From positions 353,555 through 417,554 of the forward strand of contig DASTWV010000059.1 in assembly GCA_035765775.1 (NCBI GenBank): a stretch of 64,000 nucleotides of DNA, in the 5' to 3' direction. The notes under the pieces were generated by a model that did not search any database, was not told where the DNA came from, and worked only from the letters and a program-made list of their open reading frames with translations. The position numbers and the translations under genes are program-made. The DNA comes from Actinomycetota bacterium. Its GTDB lineage: Bacteria; Actinomycetota; CADDZG01; JAHWKV01; JAOPZY01. Shown one piece after another: positions 108 to 64,000 of this stretch. Within the stretch, counting starts at the first letter, position 1; every line of letters begins with the position of its first letter.

Positions 108-619
108 TGCGCTCCTCGTCTCGTCGTGGGAACAAGTCTTCCGGTTGTAGTGTCGGATTCACGCGGAGCGTCGCCAAGGGCTCACCGGCCTATCTTCCTC
201 TCGTCCCTAGCGCGTACCGTGGCGGGACTCAAATGAAGTAGGCGGCAGGGCCGAACGGCCCGTGCCGACCGGGGCCCCGTGGCCCCCAAGCCGCTGCGCG
301 CGGTCCAATTGAACCGCACAAAGTTGGAGCGAATGCGTCATGCAGGGACTCCAACGTCATGACGAAACTCTTAGTGCAATCAGCGACAACCATCGAGGGC
401 CACGAAGGTTCGTAGCAGAGGGTTCGTTGCTAGAGGGCTTCTAACCGCACCAAGCCGAGGGGCGCACCGTGCAATGCGGCACCCCGAGGCGCAGCACGAG
501 GAGCTTCCGCTTGGGCCCCCCGATAAAGGCAAACCCAGGGCGACCTGGGGACGCAAAGTCATGGATCTCCCCTTCGTCTTATTCGAGAGGAGATCGCCAG
601 ACCGCCGAAGGAGAGCGCC

Positions 620-1653: not shown

Positions 1654-3290
1654 GCTTAGCCTGGATCCACCGATAGCCTGACCCCACGGCGGCAGGTGCC
1701 ACCGTTGGGAGGCGAGGTGATGATCTGGGCCCCGGTCGCCGAGTTGGACCGGCGTCACGTCGACGTTTGGGGTGACCTGAAGGCCCACAACTGAGCCAAT
1801 TTCATGCCCAGGGCACGGCTGTGGCCCGGAACCTGTCCGGTGGGGCGGGTTGCACCTGCGGTGATCCGGCTCAGGCGAGCAGGGCAATGCCCCGCAGGCG
1901 GTCGAGGCCGGCGGAGAACTCCTCGGCCCAGGGCCAGCCCGACGGCAGGTGCAGGTGCCATCGCCGTGACGAGCGGGTAAGGCGTCCCGGCAGGGTGAGG
2001 AAGCGCCGGCGGATGCTCTGGGCGACCACGGGGCCGACGTGGCCCAGGCCGAGCGAGGCGACCCAGCGGATCAGGTTGTGGGCCAGGGAGGTGATCACCA
2101 GCCAGGCCGAATTGGCCGAGAAGTTGCCCGAGGGGCAGTGGCTGAGCCCCGATCCCTCCTTGAGGTCCCGGATGGCGAGCTCGACGACGGCGTGGCCCCG
2201 GTGCTCGACGCCCAGGGCGACGGCCTCCCCCGGGCGGTTGGTGACGAAGGCGTGGTGGCGCCAGTCAGGCCACAGCTCGGCCTGGTCGCCGATCAGCCGG
2301 GTGCCGCGCACGATCAGGCGGTCACCCTTGTAGCTGGTCTCGGCCAGCTGCGCCTCGCCCATGGCGGTGTAGTCGATGCTCACCCACGATTCCTCGGGGA
2401 TCGTGGCGCTGGCAGCCTGACCGCGGAGTTGGACGGCACCGTGATCGAGTAGCCGATGCGGTGGCGGCGGCACGCCTTGACGAACCTCTCGGACCAGAAC
2501 GCCGAGTCCGCCCGTAGCCGGAGCTCCCCGCTGGAGCCCGCCCGCCGTGCTCGGGCGACGGTCTCGTCCGGGAAGCGCACGCAGCCCCGGGCGCTGGCGG
2601 CCGAGCCTTTGCGCTGGCGCACGTGCAGCACCTCACCGGTCTCGGCCCGGGTGGCCAGTAGCGGGTGGTAGCCGAGCCGGCGGGTGTAGCCGTAGGCGGC
2701 ACCTTGCTTGTGGTAGCCGTGCACCTCGCAGATGGTGGAGTCGAAGTCCAGCATCAGCACCTCCCCGCCCGGTCCCGCCCCCGCCGCCCAGGCCCGGGCA
2801 AGCAGCTTCCCGGTCACCTTGTCGAGCTGGCGAACGTGTCCGAAGCTGAGAGCGCAGGAAGGTGCCGAGCGTCGAGGGGGCCATCACCCGGTGCCCGAGC
2901 ACCGAGGCCGTCGAGGCGCAGCGCAGCACGTCGGCGTCGTCGATCGAGTCGCCACCGGCCAGCATCGAGTGCACCAGGGTGAGCACCTTGCGCCCCGGCA
3001 GGGCAGCCCCGGGGCGATCCCCAAGCTCAACGGTGGCATGCACCAGCTCTTCGATGCCCAGGTGCTGGGCCAAGGTGGCGGGCAGGACCAGCCCGGCGTT
3101 GGCCACCGCGTGGTCGTCGTCGAAGATCACCGACGCTCGGTCGAGGCTGTGGGAAGATGTCACCTGAAAAGTGCCTTTCTGAGTAGGGCGGATGTCGTTT
3201 TCGCAGACACCATTCTCCCTGGTCAGAGGGCATTTTTCGCGTCTATCCGGGCCTCAGATCGGCCGGTTCATCGTGGATCCAGGCTTAGGT
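1654..3290 (-). mobile_element. Degenerate IS1380-family insertion sequence (~1.63 kb) with imperfect terminal inverted repeats
   Basis: Terminal inverted repeats GTGGATCCAGGCT(T/A)AG at ~3274-3290 and its reverse complement at ~1654-1670 (13/13 identical, then partial). They bracket a transposase reading frame that is split into three pieces. Confidence 0.7.
1871..3163 (-). pseudogene. IS1380-family DDE transposase, disrupted by two frameshifts (three consecutive ORF fragments in different frames)
   Basis: ORF 2633..3163 is the N-terminal part (MTSSHSLDRASVIFDDDHAVANAGLVLPATLAQHLG...). ORF 2380..2817 is the core (MLDFDSTICEVHGYHKQGAAYGYTRRLGYHPLLATRAETGEVLHVRQRKGSA, an IS1380-like DDE signature). 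ORF 1871..2473 is the C-terminal part. The three fragments overlap and are in different frames. Confidence 0.75.
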
Positions 3291-3745
3291 CCCGGCAGCA
3301 TGCACTGGTAGGAACCTCCCAGCTGGGCGCATGGGGCACTCCGCGGCCAGCCCGCCGGCTCCACAAGCCATCACCGGCGCACCGCGCGGTGCCCGGTCCT
3401 CCAGAAGCCTCCGCTACCGCTTCTGTGCATCTTCTTCTGCTGGCCGACCCCTAGTCCGGGCGAACGATCCGGGCCTACTGCATTCGCGCCGTCCGGCGTG
3501 GCCCCAAATGGCTCCCCGCGTCCGCCTTCATGTACCAGATTTATTGGTCACTGTGCGGCTGTTCAGACGATCCCATGAGCCCGATATTTGAAGTAGGAAA
3601 CAAGCACCGCCAAAGGCAAACCCTCGGAAACGAGGCGACGCAAAGCTATAGGGCCGTCGATCACAGCGATCACGGCAGCCAGCTACCGGATGCCCGAGAA
3701 ATCCCTCGAGAGTCCGTCCATGTCGCCTCAAGAAAGGAGACGACG

Positions 3746-4779: not shown

Positions 4780-5466
4780 TTATCGGTGCCGCTTTCTCAT
4801 GACCTTCGGCCCGTCCTCAGTCATCTGCAAAATGCCTTGGCGCACGGCGATCGCCGCCGCCTCGAGTTTCGAGTGGGCCTCCAGCTTCGTCAAGATGGCT
4901 TGGACATGTTTGCGTACGGTGTTGACGCTCAAGAACAATGCCTCAGCAATTGCCGCGTTGTGCAAGCCTCGGGCCATGAGTTCCAGCACCTCGAGTTCCC
5001 GGTCGGTCAAGCCGTATGACACTTGCTGATGCTCCCGGCGCAGCCGGGGGAGGAGCCGCATGAGCAGCTCGGGCGGGATGAGGGTCTCCCCCACCGCGGC
5101 AGCCCGGACGGCGGAGAGGGCGTCCTCCACCAAACCCACCTTGGAGATGAAGCCGGAGCACCCGACCTCGATGGCATGGACCAACGCGTTGTCGTCGGCG
5201 TACGCGGTCAGGATGACCACTTTTGTCGCCGGGCACTCGGCCCTGATGTCGGCCGCGGCATCGATGCCGGCGCCATCGGGCAGCTGGTTGTCCATTAGCA
5301 CCACATCGGGGTGGAACCGGGCGGCCATATGTCGGGCGTCCGCCGCGGTAGCCGCAGCGCCGACGACCTCGAGATCGCTCTGGTCCCGGAAGACCCGGAT
5401 GAGGGTCTGCGCGAACATCTGGTGGTCGTCAACAACGAGCACCTTGATTACGCCCTGCTCGCTCAT
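4780..5466 (-). CDS. NarL/LuxR-family two-component response regulator (REC + HTH_LuxR)
   Basis: VLVVDDHQMF...VVLMDNQLPDGAG...ILTAYADD...FISK (REC domain); LTDRELEVLELMARGLHNAAIAEALFLSVNTVRKHV (LuxR HTH). Likely start is MSEQG at 5466; the ORF-track N-terminal extension is probably not translated. Confidence 0.85.
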   Translation of the reverse strand: MSEQGVIKVLVVDDHQMFAQTLIRVFRDQSDLEVVGAAATAADARHMAARFHPDVVLMDNQLPDGAGIDAAADIRAECPATKVVILTAYADDNALVHAIEVGCSGFISKVGLVEDALSAVRAAAVGETLIPPELLMRLLPRLRREHQQVSYGLTDRELEVLELMARGLHNAAIAEALFLSVNTVRKHVQAILTKLEAHSKLEAAAIAVRQGILQMTEDGPKVMRKRHR

Positions 5467-6433
5467 CAATCGATCCCCTCCGTTCGTCGCATTCTGGTGC
5501 ATCCCCGCTCGCCGGCGGTACTCCATGGCGCATGGGCGACGGCGACCGTCACGGCAGACCAGCGGTCAGCGGAGGCCCTGTAGCAGGCGCATCCCCCATC
5601 CAGGGTTCCTTCTCGCGCAAGCACCGGCTGCGCATATCCGGACATAGTAGACTACCTAGCCGCAAGCACGACGGATCCAGCTGCGGTAGTCCCACCTCAG
5701 GGCGACGCCGCCCGGCGGCGGACACGAGGGCGGGGGTTCCCCCCCATGGCGCAGGAGCGGATCTCCCTCCCGGAGGGAGCCGGGCACGTACCTGCGATCC
5801 GCCCTGAGTACTGGTGGCGCACCAGATGGGCAAAGGTGTCATCGAACGCCACCGGCGTTTCGGGATCGGTGGCTGCACAGGAATAGAACGGGGCGATCCA
5901 CAGCAGCACACCCTGGGCGGTCATGTTGCTGGATATAGACCTCTTCAACCCGACGATTGGGTCGATGGAACATTCATGTGCCTGGACGTACCTGTGAGGA
6001 TGACCTGGCATGATGAGTTCAGCATATTATCAGGTCATCAACCAGTTTGAGCGCAGCGCCGAGGACGTCCGCCAGCACCTCCCTGACCGGCCGGCGTCGG
6101 ATCGGAGGCCATGGTCCCCCGCCAGGACGGCAACGCCGACCGGGACCGCACTGAACGCCGAGGGAGCGACAGCACGTAGCGAAGCCAGAACGCCGCCAGC
6201 ACGGCGTCCACGGACGCCACGTCGGACACCGCGCAGACTGCGCCCCAGGCTGCCTAGAATGCGGGCCGGAGCTGGTGCCGGGCCGGATGCCGGGCCCCAC
6301 CACCAGACAGGGGGACGCGAGCCCGGTCTGTAGGCCCGGGCTCGGCATCCACAGCGCCAGGTCCCAGAACGTCGAGCGCGTCCGCCTCGGCGTGGCCGCC
6401 CTCGCCGCATCATGGCCCCCGCCTGCCGCCCGG

Positions 6434-36371: not shown

Positions 36372-36531
36372 GGAGGTGATGATGCCTCAGAGTTGCCGCT
36401 CCGGTGGTGAGGCTCCGATTATTGGATGAAAATCACGCGAGGCGCGTGATTTTGATCCAAAAATGCTCACCGGCACAGCAACGGGGCATTGGCCGCCCCC
36501 AACAACGCTCAGACTCGCGCCTGAGCGCTCT

Positions 36532-36884
36532 TGGAGGCGCCGGGACTTGAACCCGGGTCGACACGGCTCCCACTTGGGGCATCTACGGGCGTAGCCAACT
36601 TTTTTGTCTCAGCCCGGCAGGTGCTGCTGGCTGGCTTGCCGGTGCCCAGCCCGGTTGGATTGTCCCCCGGCGCTCACCGGACGGGGGCGCTCAGGGTCAG
36701 CCTGCTGCACGACGCCCCATCCCGGGCCGCAGGCCCTCCCGGGTGGAACGCCCGCCGATATAACGGCGGGTTATCGCTTAGGCAGCGACGTTTCGGTTTA
36801 GTGTTCCAGGCAGTTTTACGAGGTACCCGGACCTCGGCCCGCTTCCACCAAACGCGATACCGGCCTCGAAACCAATTCGCCCCC
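36532..36884 (-). ncRNA. ssrA: tmRNA (ssrA), ~353 nt, immediately downstream of smpB
   Basis: The minus-strand transcript begins GGGGGCGAAUUGGUUUCGAGGCCGG...CCGAGGUCCGGGUACCUCGUAAAACUGCC and ends with the tRNA-Ala-like T-arm/acceptor GGUUCAAGUCCCGGCGCCUCCA. The acceptor stem has a G3:U wobble. The internal tag reading frame ends ...GUCGCUGCCUAA (V-A-A-stop). Confidence 0.85.
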
Positions 36885-47850: not shown

Positions 47851-48245
47851 GTCGCCCGGCTGACCTGGTCTTTGGCCCCACATTCGCCTGCTGGCCGGCC
47901 CCGGGTCCATCCCGGGCGCCCGGCAGGACTTACACCTAAACCGCACCATGCTCAGCACCCCCCTCAGCGAGGAGACGCCTTACGTGGGTCCTTTCGCCTG
48001 CGGCTGGCCTGGACTGAGGACCGGCGGTGTTGGGACACCGCCCGCCCCGCAACCACAGCCCGGACGACCCTTTCGGGTCCAGTATATGGCGAGGGGGCCA
48101 CAGAGTTTATGGGCTTCAAGACCTTCGGGGCTCCCGGGACCTCCTACAACCTTCCGGTACGGGCCAGCCCGGATCAGGCCCGCCGGTATGCTGACTTCGT
48201 TCGTCCGCCCGCCCGTCGTGGGCCCAACGAAAGGGTGAGCGCCCT

Positions 48246-55628: not shown

Positions 55629-57035
55629 GTGCGCTTCTACGACACCCTGGCGCGCGCGGTGCGGGACCTCGTCCCCCTCGAGCCCGGCCGGGTCACGATG
55701 TACACCTGCGGGCCGACCGTCTACCGCCCCGTCCACCTCGGCAACCTGCGCACGTTCCTGGCCGCCGACCTGGTCCGTCGGGCCCTGGCTCTGGAGGGGC
55801 TGGCCGTCCGCCAGGTGATGAACATCACCGACGTCGGGCACATGGCCGATGACTCCCAGGAGGGGCCGGGTGCCGACAAGATGCTCCTCGCCGCCGAGGA
55901 CGAGGGCCTGGCGCCCGCCGAGATCGCCGCCAAGTACACGGCCGCCTTCCGGGCGGACGCCGAAGCGCTGCACCTGCTGCCGGCCGACGCCTATCCCCGG
56001 GCAACGGAGCACGTCGAGGCCATGGTGGCGCTGACCGCCGACCTGGTCCGGCGGGGCCATGCCTACGAAGCCGGCGGGATGGTGTACTACGACGTTGCCT
56101 CATTCCCGGGCTACGGGGCGCTCTCGCACAACACGGTGGACCGGCTCCACGCCGGGCACCGCACCGAGGGCGTCGATGCCCGGAAACACCACCACTACGA
56201 CTTCACGCTCTGGCGGGCGGCCGGGCCCCGGCGCACCGTGCACTGGCCCAGCCCGTGGGGGCCGGGGTTCCCCGGCTGGCACATCGAGTGCTCAGCGATG
56301 AGCCTGCACCTGCTGGGCGACTGCTTCGACCTGCACACCGGCGGGGCCGATCTGGTCTTCCCCCACCACGAGTGCGAGATCGCCCAGTCCGAAGGAGCGG
56401 TGGGCCACCGGGTGGTGGGGGGCTGGTCACACGCCGCCCACCTGCTGGCGGACGGCCGGAAGATGGCGAAGTCGGCCGGCAACGTGGTGGGCCTGGGCGA
56501 CGTGGTCGCCCGGGGGGCGGACCCGCTGGCGTTCCGCTACCTGTGCCTGCAGTCGCGCTACCGGGAGCCGGCCAACTTCACGTGGGAGGCGCTGGAGGGG
56601 GCCGACCGGGGGCTGCAGCGCTACCGGCGCCAGGTGGCCGAGTGGCGGGCGGCGGGCGGGGCGGAGTCGGCGGGCGCTGGTCTGTCCCCTGCCGGGCGGG
56701 ACCTCGACACCCATTTCCGGGCCGCCATCGCCGACGACCTCAACACCCCGAGGGCGCTGACCGCGCTGGCCGGGCTGGCGGGCGCCCCGGTGGTTCCGGC
56801 CGAGCGGGCCCGGCTGGCGGCGGGCTGGGATGCGGTGCTGGGACTCGATCTGGACCGGGATGCGGTGCCGGGGGGCGACCTGCCGCCCGGGGCGGCCGAG
56901 CGCATCGCCGAGCGGGAGCAGGCCCGGGCAGGCAGGGACTTCGCCCGGGCGGACCGCCTGCGCCAGGAGCTGGCCAGCCTGGGGGTGGAGGTGACGGATA
57001 CGCCCGAGGGCACCCGCTGGGCGGTGAGCCGCTAG
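55629..57035 (+). CDS. cysS: Cysteine--tRNA ligase (CysS/MshC superfamily), with atypical class-I signature motifs
   Basis: Collinear with M. tuberculosis CysS1 (RFYDTLARAVRDLVPLEPGRVTMYTCGPTVY...NITDV...FTLW...WPSPWGPGFPGWHIECSAM...FPHHE...DDLNTP...GVEVTDTPEGTRWAV). It reads HLGN where HIGH is expected, and KMAKS where KMSKS is expected. Confidence 0.8.
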   Translation: MRFYDTLARAVRDLVPLEPGRVTMYTCGPTVYRPVHLGNLRTFLAADLVRRALALEGLAVRQVMNITDVGHMADDSQEGPGADKMLLAAEDEGLAPAEIAAKYTAAFRADAEALHLLPADAYPRATEHVEAMVALTADLVRRGHAYEAGGMVYYDVASFPGYGALSHNTVDRLHAGHRTEGVDARKHHHYDFTLWRAAGPRRTVHWPSPWGPGFPGWHIECSAMSLHLLGDCFDLHTGGADLVFPHHECEIAQSEGAVGHRVVGGWSHAAHLLADGRKMAKSAGNVVGLGDVVARGADPLAFRYLCLQSRYREPANFTWEALEGADRGLQRYRRQVAEWRAAGGAESAGAGLSPAGRDLDTHFRAAIADDLNTPRALTALAGLAGAPVVPAERARLAAGWDAVLGLDLDRDAVPGGDLPPGAAERIAEREQARAGRDFARADRLRQELASLGVEVTDTPEGTRWAVSR

Positions 57036-57065
57036 GCCGGCCGAGGGCCGACGGCCGCGCGGACA

Positions 57066-57112
57066 GTCTGTGAGTGCTAGGGGGTGCTATATACGGGACT
57101 GAGCACTCACAG
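57066..57112. other. Perfect 12-bp inverted repeat (TCTGTGAGTGCT / AGCACTCACAGA) with a 23-nt spacer, 30 nt downstream of cysS
   Basis: Seen directly in the sequence. No following T-tract, so it is not a canonical intrinsic terminator. Confidence 0.6.
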
Positions 57113-57207
57113 ATTGCCTCGGGGTGGCGAGAAGCTGCCTAGGGCGGACAATTCGGCGCGCGCCGCGGTCAGTCGCTGAACTTGGGCTTGGGCTTAAACC
57201 TCTACCC

Positions 57208-57507
57208 TCACTGACCCTTGCTGTCTGGCAGTTCCTTGCCGATGTAGCGGGTCCGGACCCGGCCATCCTCGCGCCAGTAGGCGTACCAGTAGGGGCCGTG
57301 CGGGCAGCGGGTGCAGCCCGCCTTGCCGCACTTCACGGTCTGGCTGCGGAATCCCACCCGGCCCGGCCCTCGCCCGATGACCTCCTCGGGGCCGAGCGGG
57401 AGGTCGCCCCGCTGCACGAGCAGCCCGCGCACGAAGATCATGAGGCGGCGGAGGTCGTACTCGTCGAGGGCGCGGACCTGCTTGATGAGGCCCCGCTCGA
57501 GCGTCAT
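57208..57507 (-). CDS. Small conserved hypothetical protein with a C-terminal Cys-rich segment (CGKAGCTRCPHGPYWYAYW)
   Basis: 99-aa ORF with coding-like composition, directly downstream of the DUF3499 gene on the same strand. Confidence 0.4.
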   Translation of the reverse strand: MTLERGLIKQVRALDEYDLRRLMIFVRGLLVQRGDLPLGPEEVIGRGPGRVGFRSQTVKCGKAGCTRCPHGPYWYAYWREDGRVRTRYIGKELPDSKGQ

Positions 57508-57523
57508 GCGGGCGTACCGGGGG

Positions 57524-57793
57524 CTAGACGGCGTCGGCCCGGAAGATGTCCTCTCCGACGGCTTCCTGGGTGGAGGCCCGGCGGTCTTCCACCACCCACC
57601 CCCGGGGCGGGCGGAACCGGGAGACGTGCGGCGAGCACAGGTCGTAGCTGGCCGGGTCCGGAGGGTCGGGGAGGTCGTGGAGCCAGACCTGGCGGGTCTT
57701 GTAGTCGAACGCCAGGGTGGCGCAGGCGGGGCTGGTGCAGCCCGCGTGCGAACACAGGCGTAGCTGCGGCTCCTCCCGGAGAAAGAGATCCAT
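57524..57793 (-). CDS. DUF3499-family protein (actinobacteria-specific)
   Basis: ...CSHAGCTSPACATLAFDYKTRQVWLHDLPDPPDPASYDLCSPHVSRFRPPRGWVVEDRR resembles the DUF3499 signature (CxxxGC...ATL.F.Y........L.......YDLC..H......PRGW). Confidence 0.6.
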   Translation of the reverse strand: MDLFLREEPQLRLCSHAGCTSPACATLAFDYKTRQVWLHDLPDPPDPASYDLCSPHVSRFRPPRGWVVEDRRASTQEAVGEDIFRADAV

Positions 57794-58386
57794 CGATCAA
57801 GAACATAAATTACCGGGCTGTCAGTTTCAACGATTGGGTCCGAGCGGCCCGTCGGATCGCCATCTTACTCACCAGAACGTTGCCTAAGCCAATTTTGTAA
57901 CTCGCCGGGGAGGACGGCTCCCGGGCAAAACAAGAGGGGCCACCTCGAGAGGCGCCCCTAATCGCTCCGACCTATTCACCTGGAAATAGAAGTGTTCCGC
58001 AGTAACCCTTGGGTCGCCCCTCGGATTTCTGCGGAACTTCACCATGGTATCCCCGGCCAGGCACCAATGTCAAGGGCCCGCCCGCATTTTCTTGGATTTT
58101 TCTTGCCCCGAGAATCGGCCAGGCGGAGGTGGGGGACAAAAGCCGCTCGCAGCACGGCTTTTGTTGCTTGCTTAGACGTCTAAGGGTCGAGCGGGGCCGC
58201 TTCCAGACCGACCGCCCACCGGGTTCGCATGCGGGGCCCTCGCCGGCCGGCTCCGGGTGGTCGGTGATGTCGTCGAGCCGGTCGGGGCGATTCGGTGGGA
58301 GTGCCGACCCGGAGCGGGTAGGGCGGTCCGGTTTGATAGCGTTCGCCCCCGGGCTGGGGGGGCCGATCGTAAGGAGGGTGGTCGCG

Positions 58387-59142
58387 ATGTACGAAGGCAT
58401 GATCGCCGAGACCGTGCGCATCACCGGCACCGGGGGCGATCTCATCGACGCCTACCTGGCCCGGCCGCTGGGGCCCGGGCCGGTGCCCGGGGTCATCGTC
58501 ATCCACCACGCCCCGGGCTGGGACCAGGCCAGCAGGGAGATGACCCGCAAGTTCGCCGCCCACGGGTACGCCGCGGTCTGCCCGCACCTCTACCACCGGG
58601 AGGGGGCCGGGATGAGCCCGGAGGACGCGGCGGCCGCCGGTCGGGCCGCCGGCGGGGTACCCGACGAGCGCCTGCTGGGCGACGTCGGCGGGGCGCTGGC
58701 CCACCTCCGGGCCCTCCCCTATGCCAGCGGCAAGGTAGGGGTGATCGGGTTCTGTTCGGGCGGGCGGCAGACCTTCCTCACCGCCTGCACCCTGCCGGTG
58801 GACGCCGCCGTGGACTGCTACGGGGCCTGCGTGCTCAAACCACCTCCGCCCACCCTCCCGCTCAAGATGACGCCCTGCATCGACCGGGCGCCGGGGCTGT
58901 CCTGCCCCCTGCTCGGCCTCTTCGGCGAGGAGGACACGATGCCGTCGCCCGAGGAGACCGCCGCCATCGCCGCGGTGCTGGAGCGGGAGGGCAAGACGTT
59001 CGAGTTCCACACCTACCCGAACGCCGGGCACGGGTTCTTCGCCGTGGACCGGCCGATGTACCGCCAGGCGGCGGCCACCGACGGGTGGGCGAAGGTGTTC
59101 GGGTTCTTCGAGCGCTACCTGACGCGCAGCGAGGGAGCCTGA
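58387..59142 (+). CDS. Dienelactone hydrolase family protein
   Basis: ...GVIVIHHAPGWDQ...VGVIGFCSGGRQ (nucleophile elbow GxCxG)...HTYPNAGHGFF. Start MYEGMIAE at 58387. Confidence 0.8.
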   Translation: MYEGMIAETVRITGTGGDLIDAYLARPLGPGPVPGVIVIHHAPGWDQASREMTRKFAAHGYAAVCPHLYHREGAGMSPEDAAAAGRAAGGVPDERLLGDVGGALAHLRALPYASGKVGVIGFCSGGRQTFLTACTLPVDAAVDCYGACVLKPPPPTLPLKMTPCIDRAPGLSCPLLGLFGEEDTMPSPEETAAIAAVLEREGKTFEFHTYPNAGHGFFAVDRPMYRQAAATDGWAKVFGFFERYLTRSEGA

Positions 59143-59143
59143 C

Positions 59144-59407
59144 ATGTGCACCTACCTCACCGACACACTGGCCGTCTCGGGCAGCGCCAAGGGCACCGAG
59201 GGCTGGTCGCCCCTCTCGCAGGCCGTCGTCTACTTCGACCATCCGGTCCATGCCCCGCACGAGCACACCCTCAACATCGACCTCACCGCCCCAGAGGGCG
59301 GCGCCCGCCGGGTGGCCGTGGAGTTGAGCGCCCGGTCGGCTCGGGCGCTGGCCGAGACGATCCTGGCGATGCTGGAGAGCCCGGAGGTGCGCCAGCTGGA
59401 GCGGTAG
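59144..59407 (+). CDS. Small hypothetical protein (87 aa), translationally coupled to the dienelactone hydrolase gene
   Basis: The ATG overlaps the upstream stop (TGACATG). Coding-like composition. Confidence 0.4.
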   Translation: MCTYLTDTLAVSGSAKGTEGWSPLSQAVVYFDHPVHAPHEHTLNIDLTAPEGGARRVAVELSARSARALAETILAMLESPEVRQLER

Positions 59408-60232
59408 CTACAGCCGGCCGGGCGGGTCGTTCAGGCTCAGCATCGGGGTGGGCGGCGGGATGGTGTGGCCGCCTTCGGAGGGGATGACCCCGGTGCCGAC
59501 GGCGAAGAACTCGATCACGTGGCTGCCCCATCCGTGGCTCTTCTCCTGCAGCTGCACCCCGACGATCCCCTGGGCCTGGATGGACTGGGCCTCGGCCTGC
59601 ATGCGCTCCATCGCCAACTCCCGGGCCTCGTAGAGGGCCTGGGTGAAGTTGGGCATCTCCACGTTGCGCCCGGTCTGCTTCATCGTCTGCATCATCGACT
59701 GGTGCGCCACGTGGTAGACGCACGACCCCATCACCATGCCCACCGGCCGGTACCCGGTGTTCAGCAGCGTCCAGAAGTCCTGGCCGGACAGGTCGCTGGT
59801 GAACGGGCGCCCGTTCGGGGCCCGGTGCAGCACGCCCTCCCGGTGCTTCACAGCGGTGCCGATGGCGATGAACTCGGCCATGTGCTCGCCCCACTCGTAG
59901 CGCCCGATGTCGAGGCGCACCCCGACGATGCCGTCGGCCCCCAGCTGGTCGGCCTCCTCTTCCATCCGGGTCATCGCCAGCTCCCGGGCGCCGTACATCG
60001 CCTGGGAGAGCACGGTCAGCTCCTGGCTGGTCTTGTAGCCGGCGACCTGGATGCCGATGTGGTAGATCGAGCTACCCACGACCAGGCCGAGCGGATCGAA
60101 GCCCGCCTGGCGCACGAGCAGGAACTCGTTGACCGTGAGGTCGCTGGTGAACAGGCCCCCCCGGATCTGCTGGATGCGGGTGCGGGCCTCGGCGGGGACC
60201 CCTTCCAGGGACTGCGGGTCGTAGGTGCTCAT
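59408..60232 (-). CDS. Protein with two tandem YbjQ/DUF74 (UPF0145, putative heavy-metal-binding) domains
   Basis: Repeat 1: LFTSDLTVNEFLLVRQAGFDPLGLVVGSSIYHIG...ADGIVGVRLD...FIAIGTAV. Repeat 2: FTSDLSGQDFWTLLNTGYRPVGMVMGSCVYHVA...AQGIVGVQLQ...FFAVGTGV. Confidence 0.75.
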   Translation of the reverse strand: MSTYDPQSLEGVPAEARTRIQQIRGGLFTSDLTVNEFLLVRQAGFDPLGLVVGSSIYHIGIQVAGYKTSQELTVLSQAMYGARELAMTRMEEEADQLGADGIVGVRLDIGRYEWGEHMAEFIAIGTAVKHREGVLHRAPNGRPFTSDLSGQDFWTLLNTGYRPVGMVMGSCVYHVAHQSMMQTMKQTGRNVEMPNFTQALYEARELAMERMQAEAQSIQAQGIVGVQLQEKSHGWGSHVIEFFAVGTGVIPSEGGHTIPPPTPMLSLNDPPGRL

Positions 60233-60253
60233 GCGTGGCTCCTTTGATGGGAA

Positions 60254-61237
60254 CTAGACGGAGAGGTCGAGGTTCGTCTTGACGGGCAGTGCCCCGGCGG
60301 CGCCGGAGGTCTCGATGATGGCGGTGCCCAGCACGTGCAGTTGGACGATGAGGTCGATGCGCTTGCTGCCGTTCTGGTCGATCTCCCGGGTGTGGACGTC
60401 CTGGCGGATCGACACCCCGACCACCCCGTGCGCCCCGAGTCGACGGGCCTGCTCGCCGAGGTGCCCGAAGGCCACTTCCCGGGCGGTGTAGAGGGCCTGG
60501 GTGAAGTCCGGGAGCTCGGCGTTGGCCGACCAGCTCCCCCAGCCCGAGGTCAGGTTCTGCGTGGCCCACTGCGGGACGACGTAGAACACCGTGGTGGCGC
60601 CCACCACCCCGACCGGGCGGAAGCCGGCGCTGAGGAGGTTGTAGACCTCCTGGCCGGAGAGGTCGGTCAGCACCGGTGACGGGCTGGGCTCAGCCGATCC
60701 GGTGCGCACCGCCGTGCCCACCGCCACCATCTCCACCGAGTTGGGGGCGAAGTCGTGGGCGCCCCAGGTGATGCGCACGCCGACGACGGCGTCGGCCCCG
60801 GCGTGCAGCGCCTCCTGCTGGAGGCGGGAGAGAGCCAGCCCGCGGGCCTGATTCCAGGCGTCGGAGAGCATCGTCAGCTCGTAGGCGCCCCGGCCGACGC
60901 CGAAGTACGAGCCGGGCATGCCCTGCCAGCCCACGTGGTACACGGAGCTGCCCATCACCTGCGAGACCGGGCGGAGGCCCACCCGAGCCAGGAGGGCGAA
61001 CTCGGCCACCGACAGGTCGGAGGTGAAGAGGGTCTGGTTCCCCTGGCGCAGCTCGGCGAGGCGGGCCTGGGCTTTGGGCGGGATGCCGCCCTGCTCGAGG
61101 GCGGCGATGGCCGCCTGCACCTCGGCGGCGGCCACGGCGGGATCGACGGGCGGGAGGGACGGGGGCGCCGGGCGGGAGTCGGCGGCGTTCGGGCCGTCGT
61201 CGGCGCCACTGGACCCCCGGCGGTGGAAGAAACTCAT
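60254..61237 (-). CDS. Paralogous protein with two tandem YbjQ/DUF74 domains and a Pro/Ala-rich N-terminal extension
   Basis: Repeat 1: LFTSDLSVAEFALLARVGLRPVSQVMGSSVYHVG...ADAVVGVRIT...MVAVGTAV. Repeat 2: VLTDLSGQEVYNLLSAGFRPVGVVGATTVFYV...AHGVVGVSIR...LHVLGTAI. Confidence 0.75.
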   Translation of the reverse strand: MSFFHRRGSSGADDGPNAADSRPAPPSLPPVDPAVAAAEVQAAIAALEQGGIPPKAQARLAELRQGNQTLFTSDLSVAEFALLARVGLRPVSQVMGSSVYHVGWQGMPGSYFGVGRGAYELTMLSDAWNQARGLALSRLQQEALHAGADAVVGVRITWGAHDFAPNSVEMVAVGTAVRTGSAEPSPSPVLTDLSGQEVYNLLSAGFRPVGVVGATTVFYVVPQWATQNLTSGWGSWSANAELPDFTQALYTAREVAFGHLGEQARRLGAHGVVGVSIRQDVHTREIDQNGSKRIDLIVQLHVLGTAIIETSGAAGALPVKTNLDLSV

Positions 61238-61271
61238 GGGCGGCTCCTTGGGATGGGTGGGCGGAGCGGGA

Positions 61272-61661
61272 TCAGGTCAGGAGGCGCTGCAGGGCGATCC
61301 GGGCCTCCTCGCTGGTGGCGGCCTGCGCCGCCATGTCCTGGGCGAGGGCGGTGACCCAGTCAGCCAGCGCCAGGCGGTCATTCTTCAGCACGATCCCCCG
61401 GACCGCCTTGGCCCGGGTGCAGTCCACGGTCCCGGACCCGTCGGAGTCGAGGGTGTAACGGCAGTCCCCCAGGGCGATGGCGATGCGGCGGACCACCTTG
61501 TCGTGCGAGAGCAGCTTGCGGGCGTGGCGCTCCACCTGCACATGGCCCGGCAGAGCGCCCTCGAGCTTGGTGGCCAGGGCCTCGACGTAGGTGTGGGTGT
61601 CGGCGTCATCGGCCCGCAAGGATGCCGCCACCATTTCGAAGTCGTCGGGCTGCCCGTCCAT
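61272..61661 (-). CDS. Hypothetical protein (129 aa)
   Basis: Coding-like ORF directly upstream of the YbjQ-domain pair. No recognisable family. Confidence 0.4.
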   Translation of the reverse strand: MDGQPDDFEMVAASLRADDADTHTYVEALATKLEGALPGHVQVERHARKLLSHDKVVRRIAIALGDCRYTLDSDGSGTVDCTRAKAVRGIVLKNDRLALADWVTALAQDMAAQAATSEEARIALQRLLT

Positions 61662-61722
61662 CGTCGCTCCTCTGGCTCCGTCGGCCCGACCAGTGTCCCA
61701 GACACCGGCAGTGCCCGCCGGG

Positions 61723-63132
61723 CTACGACCCCTTGAACACCGAGTCCGGGCAGAAGACGGTGCCCACCGGACCGTAGGGGTTGAGCGGGCCGGAGCAGTG
61801 GGCGCTCTTGGCGAAGCCGCTGGTCAGGGCGTCCTGGATGGCCAGGGATCCCTCGACGAACATCTGCGCGGCAAACAGGACCACGCACAGCCCGATCACC
61901 GCCCGGGCCCGCCCCCGCCCCCGCTGGCCGGCGAGCCACCGGGCGAGGGCGGCGAGGGCGACGGCGTCGGTGACGAAGAACACGGGCAGCCAGTCGGCGA
62001 AGTACCGGAAGGTCTCGCCCGGGAACATCATGAACAGGGCCAGAGCGCCGAGCGCCCCCACGAGCAGCACAGCGGCGGCCTCGAGAGCCGGGTCGGGCCC
62101 CCGCGCCCGCCGCCAGGTACGCGCCCTCCGGGCGATCATCACGAGAGCGATCACCAGCAGGAGGAAGCACAGTGGCAGGGCGTCCTCGACGCTGGTGGTG
62201 GGCTCCCAGACCGTTTCGCCGCGCCGGGCGGGCCAGAGCCGGAGGGGATGGTCCTGGGCCAGCCCGACGTAGGGCGAGCTGGAGTACAGCCGGAGGGCGT
62301 TGGGCTGCAGGTCCGACACCACCTTGGTGGGCAGAAGGGCCGGGTTCAAGCCGGCGAAGTGCTCGAAGGTGGCGATGCGTTTCGGGTTGCCTCCCAGCAG
62401 CAGCTGGTGGGCGTAGGGCGGCGACGTGTGACCGAATTTGGCGACATCCACCACCGATGGGGTGACCAGTGCCACCAGGGCACCCGCGAGGACGAGCACG
62501 CCCCAGGCCCGCCGGGAACGCAGGAAGAGCCAGGCACCCACCACCACCGTGGCGAAGAGGGCGGATGCACCTGAGGTGGGGCGGGCGTTCGTGGCCAGGA
62601 TGTCGGCCGCCACGAGGACCACGATCGTTGCCGCCCGGGGCCGGGAGCGCAGGGCGATCGCCGCCCCCATGGCCACCGAGGCGAACGCCGCCCCCCAAAG
62701 GATGGCCTCCTCGTAGACCAGCGGCCGGGCAACCAACCAGAGCAGCGGGGAGGCCCCCAGGGCGGGGGCCGAGGCCGTGATGCCGACGACCCAGTTCGCC
62801 CGCCGGCTGAGTCCGGGGGCCCACAGCGCCACCAGCTGGCGGGAGATCCACCAGCCGCCGGCTGCCAGCACCAGGAAGCCGAGGTTGAAGTACAGGGATT
62901 CCCAACGCAGCCCTTTGGCGTGGGACCCCAGCAGGGCCACCACCGGCAGGCGCAGCAGGGTGGGCGTGATACCGAAATACCCGTAGCACTTGTGCCCCCG
63001 CATGAAGCACTCGAAGGTGAGGCTGCTGTAGGGCACGTCGAGGTGGCCGTGGAGCAACGAGATGGCCGCCACCGTGTAGTAGTGCTCCCGGTGGCCGATC
63101 CGGCTGGCCAGCGGGAACCCACCGTGGCCCAC
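61723..63132 (-). CDS. Polytopic integral membrane protein, possibly a GT-C-type (ArnT/PMT-like) glycosyltransferase
   Basis: At least 10 hydrophobic helices. Overall architecture resembles lipid-carrier-dependent glycosyltransferases. No strong motif identified. Confidence 0.45.
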   Translation of the reverse strand: MGHGGFPLASRIGHREHYYTVAAISLLHGHLDVPYSSLTFECFMRGHKCYGYFGITPTLLRLPVVALLGSHAKGLRWESLYFNLGFLVLAAGGWWISRQLVALWAPGLSRRANWVVGITASAPALGASPLLWLVARPLVYEEAILWGAAFASVAMGAAIALRSRPRAATIVVLVAADILATNARPTSGASALFATVVVGAWLFLRSRRAWGVLVLAGALVALVTPSVVDVAKFGHTSPPYAHQLLLGGNPKRIATFEHFAGLNPALLPTKVVSDLQPNALRLYSSSPYVGLAQDHPLRLWPARRGETVWEPTTSVEDALPLCFLLLVIALVMIARRARTWRRARGPDPALEAAAVLLVGALGALALFMMFPGETFRYFADWLPVFFVTDAVALAALARWLAGQRGRGRARAVIGLCVVLFAAQMFVEGSLAIQDALTSGFAKSAHCSGPLNPYGPVGTVFCPDSVFKGS

Positions 63133-63335
63133 CCAGGCGTACAGGAGCCAGGAGGCCGCCGCCGTGAGGAGGAAGGCGGTGTCGAAGGGGTGGGCCGCGG
63201 CCCATGCCCGCAGGCCGATGCGCCCGGCGAGGCCCTCCCGGGGCGCGGTGGCCTCGGGATGGCTGCGCAGCGTGTCGATCGACCCCTCCGTTCCTCAGGC
63301 TTCGGACCGCCCGAGGCTACAACGTCGGCCCGCCC

Positions 63336-64000
63336 CTACAGGGTGCGCGGGTTCGGGCGCTCGGTGTCGATGCCGTAGCGCTCGATAGCCTCGGCCACCG
63401 TCTCGGGCTTCACGTCGCCGGCCTCCGCCAGGGCCGAGAGGGTGGCGACGACGATGTGTTCGGCATCGATCTCGAAGTGGCGGCGGAGGTTCTCCCGGGT
63501 GTCGCTGCGCCCGAAGCCGTCCGTGCCCAGGACCTCGTAGCGGCCAGGGATGAAGCGGGCGATCATGTCGGGCACTGCCTTGACCCAGTCACTGGCGGCG
63601 ATGACCGGCCCCTCCGTCCCCTCGAGTGCCTGGGTGACGAAGGGGACCCGGCGGGCCTCGCCCGGGTGGAGCCGGTTCCAGCGCTCCGCTTCGAGAGCCT
63701 CCTCCCGGAGCAACTTGTAGCTGGTGACGCTCCAGACGTCGGCGGCGACGTCGTGGTCGGCGGCCAGCATCTGCTGCGCCCGCAGCACCTGGGTGGCCAG
63801 GATCGACCCGGAGCCCAGGAGCTGGGCCCGGTGCGTGCGCCCGCCTGCGGCGGGTGCCACCAGGTGGATCCCGGCCAGGATGCCCTCGTCGCTGCCCGCC
63901 GGCTTGGGCGGCATCACGTAGTTCTCGTTGTAGAGCGTCAGGTAGAAGAAGACGTCCTCCACCGGCTGGCCCGAGCCGAGCATCCGGCGCAGCCCATCCC
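63336..64000 (-). CDS. aceE: Pyruvate dehydrogenase E1 component (homodimeric AceE type), C-terminal part; the gene continues beyond the window
   Basis: ...FFYLTLYNENYVMP...LLGSGSILATQVLRAQQMLAADHDVAADVWSVTSYKLLREEA...LGTDGFGRSDTRENLRRHFEIDAEHIVVATL matches the AceE C-terminus. The frame is open to the window edge. Confidence 0.8.
   Translation of the reverse strand, partial: DGLRRMLGSGQPVEDVFFYLTLYNENYVMPPKPAGSDEGILAGIHLVAPAAGGRTHRAQLLGSGSILATQVLRAQQMLAADHDVAADVWSVTSYKLLREEALEAERWNRLHPGEARRVPFVTQALEGTEGPVIAASDWVKAVPDMIARFIPGRYEVLGTDGFGRSDTRENLRRHFEIDAEHIVVATLSALAEAGDVKPETVAEAIERYGIDTERPNPRTL

Follow-up and report, generated by a model that had tools for sequence, protein, structure and literature searches.

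Known YbjQ proteins and a locus with two tandem members

The YbjQ family (PF01906, also named UPF0145 or DUF74) includes single-domain proteins such as E. coli YbjQ, Shigella S0862 (PDB 1y2i), Bacillus cereus BC_1816/APC22750 (2gtc, 1vr4) and Pediococcus PEPE_0654 (3qkb). Crystal structures of single-domain YbjQ proteins are homopentamers (PMC2954204, PMC4092069), and the PDB entries contain five chains each. No functional study of the family under any of these names was found in the searchable literature. Here we describe a locus on a 64,000-nucleotide (nt) stretch of the genome of an Actinomycetota bacterium (contig DASTWV010000059.1, positions 353,555 to 417,554; hereafter the window), in which two adjacent genes, termed A and B, each encode two YbjQ domains in tandem and follow a small gene, termed C. 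Sequence comparison places these genes in a widespread cassette that is made up of a C-like gene and one to three tandem-YbjQ paralogues.

A two-domain member of the family has been described from Mycobacterium tuberculosis, where Rv1762c (789 bp, 262 amino acids (aa)) was annotated as a DUF74 protein in which the domain occurs twice (PMC9846648). In encapsulin nanocompartment preparations purified by ultracentrifugation this protein was 'consistently identified' (eLife 2021, e74358), and the transposon mutant Rv1762c::Tn showed moderate sensitivity to H2O2 at pH 4.5 (10.1101/2020.08.31.276014). As at our locus, the gene with two YbjQ domains adjoins a small gene of the DUF5073 type, Rv1761c (adjacency taken from the literature). 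The two loci differ in that M. tuberculosis has one tandem-YbjQ gene where the window has two, and in that the small gene lies downstream in M. tuberculosis. Moreover, Rv1761c (nuclear magnetic resonance structure 2k3m) is regarded as a membrane protein, whereas C has no hydrophobic segment. Published annotation together with a weak match between C and Rv1761c makes it likely that the cassette includes Rv1761c-Rv1762c. The initial annotation knew of no characterised example of proteins with this architecture, which is correct in part, Rv1762c being a two-domain DUF74 protein for which some experimental data exist.

A related alpha/beta fold has been reported for RcsF, DUF1471 proteins (YhcN/BhsA) and an archaeal Se-binding protein (PMC4092069), none of which has a detectable sequence relation to A or B. 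RcsF and DUF1471 proteins are secreted, periplasmic or outer-membrane stress sensors, whereas neither a signal peptide nor a membrane segment was found in A and B, and A, B and C all lacked hydrophobic segments.

Both tandem proteins matched PF01906 in two separate stretches, with 85.3 bits for A and 63.8 bits for B (gathering cut-off 23 bits). In half-against-half BLAST the halves of each protein were homologous to each other (43% identity, E 2e-29 in A; 34% identity, E 3e-8 in B), and A and B aligned collinearly over their full lengths with 37% identity (E 1e-54). These results bear out what the initial annotation had read from the sequence, namely two neighbouring double-YbjQ genes that are tandem paralogues and have clearly diverged. 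The domain is the same as in single-domain YbjQ proteins by hidden Markov model (HMM), although in NCBIfam A and B matched the single-domain YbjQ equivalogs below threshold only. Unlike the single-domain proteins, the chains encoded here combine two domains with a helix at the N-terminus (G-[IV]-P-x-x-A-x-x-R-[LI]) and a conserved tail at the C-terminus, and the locus encodes two diverged paralogues in adjacent genes as well as a small partner dedicated to them. B further has a Pro/Ala-rich extension at its N-terminus.

The AlphaFold2 (AF2) model of A (predicted local distance difference test (pLDDT) 82, predicted template modelling score 0.82) consists of two helix/strand domains and a C-terminal tail of low confidence. 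Predicted elements of the first domain are a helix at residues 34-42, a strand at 45-58, a helix at 73-96 and strands at 101-110 and 118-130; those of the second are a helix at 150-158, a strand at 161-175, a helix at 194-217 and strands at 222-233 and 238-251. Foldseek aligned the model, one domain at a time, with 1y2i/1vr4 (probability 1.0) and 3qkb (0.98-0.99), so that the predicted fold of A is that of the single-domain proteins (0.98-1.0). It also returned RcsF as a related fold (0.90-0.98), and found no YbjQ structure with tandem domains in the PDB. A profile search of the PDB matched 1y2i, 2gtc and 1vr4. The tail (pLDDT below 55 in the monomer model) holds a pattern, hydrophobic-x-hydrophobic-x-L-[D/S/N], that is common to A-type, B-type and distant family members, and its low pLDDT is what would be expected if this segment became ordered only upon binding of a partner.

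The region has a GC content of 70%, and four open reading frames (ORFs), encoding a 469-aa protein, C, B and A, lie head to tail on the minus strand. Because C, B and A share this strand, are separated by spacers of 34 and 21 nt that each contain a GGAG-type ribosome-binding site (one also precedes C), and because no terminator-like site was predicted from 57000 to 64000, their arrangement is best explained as a three-gene operon C-B-A (Table 1). Ratios of nonsynonymous to synonymous substitution rates (dN/dS) against the nearest relative (L005) were 0.16 for A, 0.30 for B and 0.25 for C. A, B and C are therefore real genes under purifying selection, B being the faster-evolving of the two paralogues. 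In addition, an identical 327-aa B protein is present in NCBI (P0391) and the homologues of A and B have the same lengths, and neither of the two is a pseudogene.

Table 1. Positions of the cassette genes, their parts and the adjacent genes within the window (domain bounds are approximate)
Feature	Position	Strand	Basis or remark
Gene C, first gene of the putative operon	61272..61661	-	129-aa ORF; GGAG ribosome-binding site ahead of ATG
C-B spacer, 34 nt	61238..61271	-	read from sequence; with B ribosome-binding site CCAAGGAGCC
Gene B, tandem-YbjQ, 327 aa	60254..61237	-	ORF and PF01906 in two stretches
B first YbjQ domain, about aa 68-180	60698..61036	-	Pfam best stretch aa 121-178; collinear with A
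B second YbjQ domain, about aa 188-318	60284..60676	-	insertion HTREIDQNGSKRIDL relative to A
B-A spacer, 21 nt	60233..60253	-	read from sequence; with A ribosome-binding site AAAGGAGCC
Gene A, tandem-YbjQ, 274 aa	59408..60232	-	ORF and PF01906 in two stretches
A first YbjQ domain, about aa 25-131	59840..60160	-	Pfam best stretch aa 72-129
A second YbjQ domain, about aa 141-252	59477..59812	-	AF2 elements and conservation table
A C-terminal tail	59411..59476	-	conserved motif P-x-P-x-P-M-L-S-L-N-D; family pattern hydrophobic-x-hydrophobic-x-L-[D/S/N]
Dienelactone hydrolase and 87-aa DUF6295 gene	58387-59407	+	PF01738 154 bits; PF19812 116.7 bits
469-aa protein, seven hydrophobic segments	61723-63132	-	61 nt upstream of C

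Conservation of the cassette and its small partner gene

A scan of species-representative genomes returned at least 507 with relatives of A, and the arrangements were counted in the best 80 loci. These belonged nearly all to Thermoleophilia metagenome-assembled genomes (MAGs) of the Solirubrobacterales and Gaiellales, with two labelled as Chloroflexota and one cultured carrier, Conexibacter sp. S30A1. The order C-B-A was found at 45 loci, B-A without C at 24 (one of them with C downstream), C-A without B at about 10 and A alone at a single locus. B thus stood directly upstream of A at about 69-71 of the 80 species-level loci (about 87%), and C was present in about 70% of the 80 species. Since A occurs without B at about 12% of the loci and without C at about 30%, neither partner is obligatory. 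The flanking genes of the cassette varied widely from locus to locus, and its intergenic spacers measured 0-30 nt or were replaced by overlaps, as in co-translated operons.

Over these 80 species identity to the A protein of the window was 70-89% (median 75.5%), compared with 33-66% (median 40%) for B, taking the orthologues upstream of A, and 35-66% (median 44%) for C. B-type genes ranged from 308 to 363 aa. At Thermoleophilia loci without C the B-type protein was often longer and had inserted segments, reaching 360-363 aa at three of them (L041, L049 and L069; gene at about 4900-6000), and the B-type protein of the Conexibacter locus (L074), likewise without C, had 315 aa. An N-terminal motif, [LI]-x-R-I-E-x-G-G-I-[PT]-x-x-A-x-x-R-L, is common to the B-type proteins of such C-less loci and to A and B of the window. 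The two-domain family as a whole is large: close matches of A fall into more than 8000 clusters at 90% identity, and 421 clusters remain at 50% identity (E<=1e-30).

The initial annotation had treated the 129-aa ORF C as a flanking hypothetical. The ORF is real, but rather than a mere flank it is a widely conserved partner of the tandem-YbjQ genes. We found 225 homologues of C, all of them hypothetical proteins from MAGs of Actinomycetota/Thermoleophilia. The recurrent Pfam match was to DUF5073 (PF16817), for which C scored 16.1 bits (E 0.012) and thus did not reach the cut-off of 27 bits; orthologues 72-74% identical to C came closer, with 24.9 bits (E 2e-5) and 26.7 bits (E 6e-6). Among 39 members of the C family 14 matched DUF5073 at E<=0.05, and no other family recurred. 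When three profiles of the C family were searched against the PDB, the only sequence match was the M. tuberculosis protein Rv1761c (2k3m), which was weak (E 0.086-0.65), with the motifs LPG, GDxRY and V-x-GIV lining up between the two. By these sequence matches C is best called a distant relative of DUF5073/Rv1761c, and not a member of that family. For C, AF2 predicted a compact alpha/beta protein (pLDDT 88) with the order helix-helix-five strands-helix-helix, for which Foldseek returned no PDB match. Its maximum Kyte-Doolittle mean over 19 residues was 0.86, which indicates that C has no hydrophobic segment. On one metagenomic contig a C-like domain was fused to the N-terminus of an A-type tandem-YbjQ protein (P0246, 424 aa, L086 2169-3443), where it scored 45.8 bits with the C-family HMM.

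The same gene types were also found outside the Thermoleophilia. A C-like gene is followed by tandem-YbjQ genes of 260 aa and then 274 aa in a Chloroflexota MAG (L091), by three paralogues at L092 and by two at L095 (51% GC). On the linear plasmid of Streptomyces sp. NBC_01276 (NZ_CP108443.1, L094) the same trio is encoded by a divergent tandem-YbjQ gene, an A-type gene and a C-like gene (OG295_RS00440, RS00445 and RS00450), and its order is B-A-C, as opposed to C-B-A in the window. L089 holds three tandem-YbjQ paralogues and L087, from the Alicyclobacillaceae, a pair; L093 (42% GC) has TelA, a C-like gene and one tandem-YbjQ gene, with overlapping genes. With the C-family HMM the small genes of L091, L092, L093, L095 and L094 scored 162, 101, 51, 70 and 80 bits, respectively.

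According to BLAST and a distance tree each cluster contains one conserved A-type protein together with one or two paralogues that are far more divergent. Identity of the A-type proteins to A was 73% in the Chloroflexota MAG, 66% at L089 and 62% on the Streptomyces plasmid, and the tree grouped these proteins with A. A itself has the features that define the A-type group, which are two YbjQ domains, a length of about 260-280 aa and an identity of 60% or more with the conserved protein in every cluster. In the distance tree the B-types of Chloroflexota and Thermoleophilia group together, which argues that the split between A-type and B-type is old.

Further observations concern single contexts. 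At L093 (3335-5747) the gene for TelA (toxic anion resistance, PF05816) precedes the C-like gene, which the tandem-YbjQ gene overlaps by 7 nt, and Shufflon_N genes lie near; TelA was the only stress-annotated neighbour in all contexts examined. The pair in the Alicyclobacillaceae MAG (L087/L088) has no C-like gene; an IS110-family transposase immediately precedes the pair, and an integrase fragment and the gene for a DNA polymerase B exonuclease are close by, which suggests occasional mobility of the cassette. Plasmid-borne relatives were found on two Streptomyces plasmids and one cyanobacterial plasmid, the copy on the Aulosira plasmid being apparently truncated. Two proteins from short single contigs (P0001, 393 aa, and P0003, 386 aa) apparently contain three YbjQ domains and may be artefacts of assembly or gene calling. 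We also considered P0440 (552 aa), from another short single contig, as a B-A fusion and ruled it out, as its Arg/Pro-rich linker resembles out-of-frame read-through.

Possible functions of the tandem-YbjQ proteins

We propose that the YbjQ domains of A and B oligomerise through the usual five-fold interface and that, because each chain has two domains, A and B might co-assemble into a soluble hetero-oligomer of high molecular weight. The slowly evolving A-type chain would provide the functional core and the B-type chain, in which the semi-conserved Cys/His positions of A have been lost, a structurally adapted partner. C would act as a stoichiometric accessory, be it as adaptor, cap or regulator. 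The physiological role could be protection from stress, of the oxidative or acid kind hinted at by M. tuberculosis, rather than binding of heavy metals. A pentamer-based assembly of this kind, possibly related to stress, is favoured because the domain is pentameric, because a slow paralogue is conserved together with faster ones, and because the small partner is linked to the A-type gene and occasionally fused to it. The initial annotation had suggested a hetero-oligomer from the duplications, and the co-conservation of A and B, with B upstream of A at most loci and with pairs or triples of paralogues in unrelated lineages, fits two proteins that work together. How Rv1762c sediments suggests that assemblies of this type can reach a very large size, while the phenotype of its mutant and the single TelA neighbour hint faintly at stress protection.

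Several points weigh against this proposal. The link between C and DUF5073/Rv1761c stays below the Pfam cut-off (16.1 bits for C and 26.7 for the best orthologue, compared with 27), and Rv1761c is described as a membrane protein, unlike C. The relation of Rv1762c to A comes from published annotation, its Tn phenotype is given in the preprint version only, and its co-sedimentation with encapsulin could reflect cargo loading or contamination instead of a particle of its own. Furthermore, A and C were modelled as monomers, and a share of the loci lacks B or C, as counted above. On balance, we consider that the chances of the hetero-oligomer with C as accessory are about even.

Alternatively, A and B might be sub-functionalised tandem duplicates that act independently as separate homo-oligomers, their adjacency being historical. 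The loci with A alone or C-A would agree with this, as would the fast evolution and variable length of the B-types and the variation in paralogue number from one to three between lineages. However, the split between the paralogues appears old, and adjacency and order were nevertheless kept in about 87% of the 80 species despite changing flanks, with spacers like those of co-translated operons. We therefore regard independent action of the two paralogues as unlikely, though it deserves consideration.

Going further than a hetero-oligomer, tandem-YbjQ proteins and their DUF5073-like partner might build a large proteinaceous particle in which each chain bridges two five-fold rings. Thirty chains on the edges of a dodecahedral cage of 12 pentamers would be geometrically possible, with A as core subunit, B as variant subunit and C as cap or adaptor. 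Such a particle would account for the presence of Rv1762c in ultracentrifugation fractions of 'nanocompartments', yet we think of it as a rather long shot. The same co-purification of Rv1762c with Cfp29/DyP nanocompartments in M. tuberculosis could instead mean that A and B are cargo of an encapsulin nanocompartment or associated with its shell, the C-terminal tail serving as targeting peptide. The short tail motif, which is shared by A, B and distant relatives and disordered in the monomer model, would suit this role. Among the genes called in the annotated surroundings of the cassette, to which this result applies, there was neither an encapsulin nor a DyP gene, and a large particle formed by the proteins themselves would explain the co-sedimentation equally well. 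The tail P-x-P-M-L-S-L-N-D is also unlike the Gly/Ser-rich L-x-I-G-S-L targeting peptides, and we hold an encapsulin-related function to be improbable.

Pfam and NCBI name the family 'putative heavy-metal-binding', and metal transport has been speculated for Rv1762c (PMC9846648). A and B might accordingly sequester or sense metal ions in metal homeostasis, and A-type proteins do keep the semi-conserved residues C171, H58, H174 and H233/H238, of which C171, H174, H233 and H238 lie in the second domain of A. In 42 diverse family members, however, no Cys or His column was invariant (C171 80%, H58 76%, H174 71%, H233 and H238 57% each). The invariant columns were Gly, Ala and Pro, and the near-invariant polar residues form a Glu/Arg/Arg pattern that recurs on the long helices of both domains (E71, R83, R89 and E192, R204, R210). 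B of the window has C171, H174 and H238 replaced, and the Cys count is one in A and zero in B. Neither a metal transporter nor a metal-sensing regulator or metallochaperone was present in any annotated neighbourhood. To our knowledge the metal label derives from structural comparison only, and we know of no assay behind it. The conservation pattern lends it little support, and we judge a function in heavy-metal binding or homeostasis to be very unlikely.

A mobile anti-phage defence or toxin system is the least likely alternative and can hardly be maintained: the transposase, integrase fragment and DNA polymerase B exonuclease gene beside the Alicyclobacillaceae pair, the plasmid-borne relatives and the shufflon genes at L093 would speak for it, but PADLOC-DB 2.0 gave zero matches at E<=0.1 for A, B, C, the DUF6295 protein and the membrane protein next to the cassette, relatives occurred in 0 of 50,697 phage records and 3 of 72,556 plasmids, and the relatives in at least 507 species-representative genomes, nearly all Thermoleophilia among the best 80, with 70-89% identity and a dN/dS of 0.16, form a vertically inherited, housekeeping-like pattern.

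Surroundings of the cassette and its significance

Downstream of A lies a dienelactone hydrolase gene, which is encoded on the plus strand and has its end at 59142; its longest ORF starts at 58009, and the domain and a plausible Met start are found near 58387. One base after its stop begins an 87-aa ORF (59144-59407), and this junction, TGA-C-ATG, makes the translational coupling noted in the initial annotation plausible. The 87-aa protein is a member of DUF6295 (PF19812, E 5.5e-34, cut-off 25 bits). Its stop codon (59405-59407) abuts that of A (59408-59410), no terminator being predicted between them, and the plus- and minus-strand gene sets are therefore convergent. The initial annotation had also joined the 129-aa and 87-aa ORFs with A and B in a four-gene block. 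Both ORFs exist, but the DUF6295 gene falls outside the YbjQ module, because it lies on the opposite strand and was absent from all 84 loci with a relative of A (tblastn). Together with the hydrolase gene it forms another operon, convergent with the cassette. The hydrolase gene and the gene for the 469-aa membrane protein were likewise found at none of these 84 loci, and all three are accidental neighbours of the YbjQ genes.

The 469-aa protein had faint matches to WsfD-like (glycan hexose transferase) and TgpA_N families and to nothing else, and it is also encoded on another contig of the same organism (L085). Membership of its gene in the operon was considered and ruled out, as it is missing in all related loci and aceE takes its place immediately ahead of C in the nearest relative. 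An RNA element or riboswitch in the region was rejected as well, the sole match being below threshold, at chance level and inside the hydrolase gene. Between cysS and the hydrolase gene lie two small genes on the minus strand (57208-57507 and 57524-57793), one encoding an 89-aa DUF3499 protein (58 bits) and the other a 99-aa protein with a sub-threshold match to DUF6788; a sigma-70-like promoter match is located at 57830-57802.

Elsewhere in the window we found several RNA features. Two cyclic di-GMP-I class riboswitch aptamers (519-610 (+), 68.1 bits, and 3605-3690 (+), 64.5 bits) and a match to the Actinobacteria small RNA Ms_IGR-7 (3166-3282 (+), 53.9 bits) fall within a span of about 3 kb. 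Rfam RF00023 identified a transfer-messenger RNA (tmRNA) at 36531-36884 (-) with 112 bits, although ARAGORN predicted neither a tRNA nor a tmRNA in the window. A raiA RNA motif (RF03072) at 47851-48068 (-) exceeded the gathering score with 113.6 bits.

That A and B belong to an annotated family is already known, and an identical B sequence is public. What appears to be new, as far as the searchable literature shows, is the cassette of a C-like gene with one to three tandem-YbjQ paralogues, its division into an A-type and divergent paralogues, and the likely identity of Rv1761c-Rv1762c as one of its forms. YbjQ/UPF0145 is an old and widespread bacterial family with four crystal structures, and its two-domain members are encoded within a conserved cassette. 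This cassette ties together two orphan families, DUF74 and DUF5073, and offers a candidate explanation for the Rv1762c signal in mycobacterial nanocompartment preparations. A, B and C together represent a concrete and testable unit for biochemistry. Should the large particle considered above be real, it would represent a bacterial protein compartment or scaffold of a new class, conserved across Actinomycetota and Chloroflexota.

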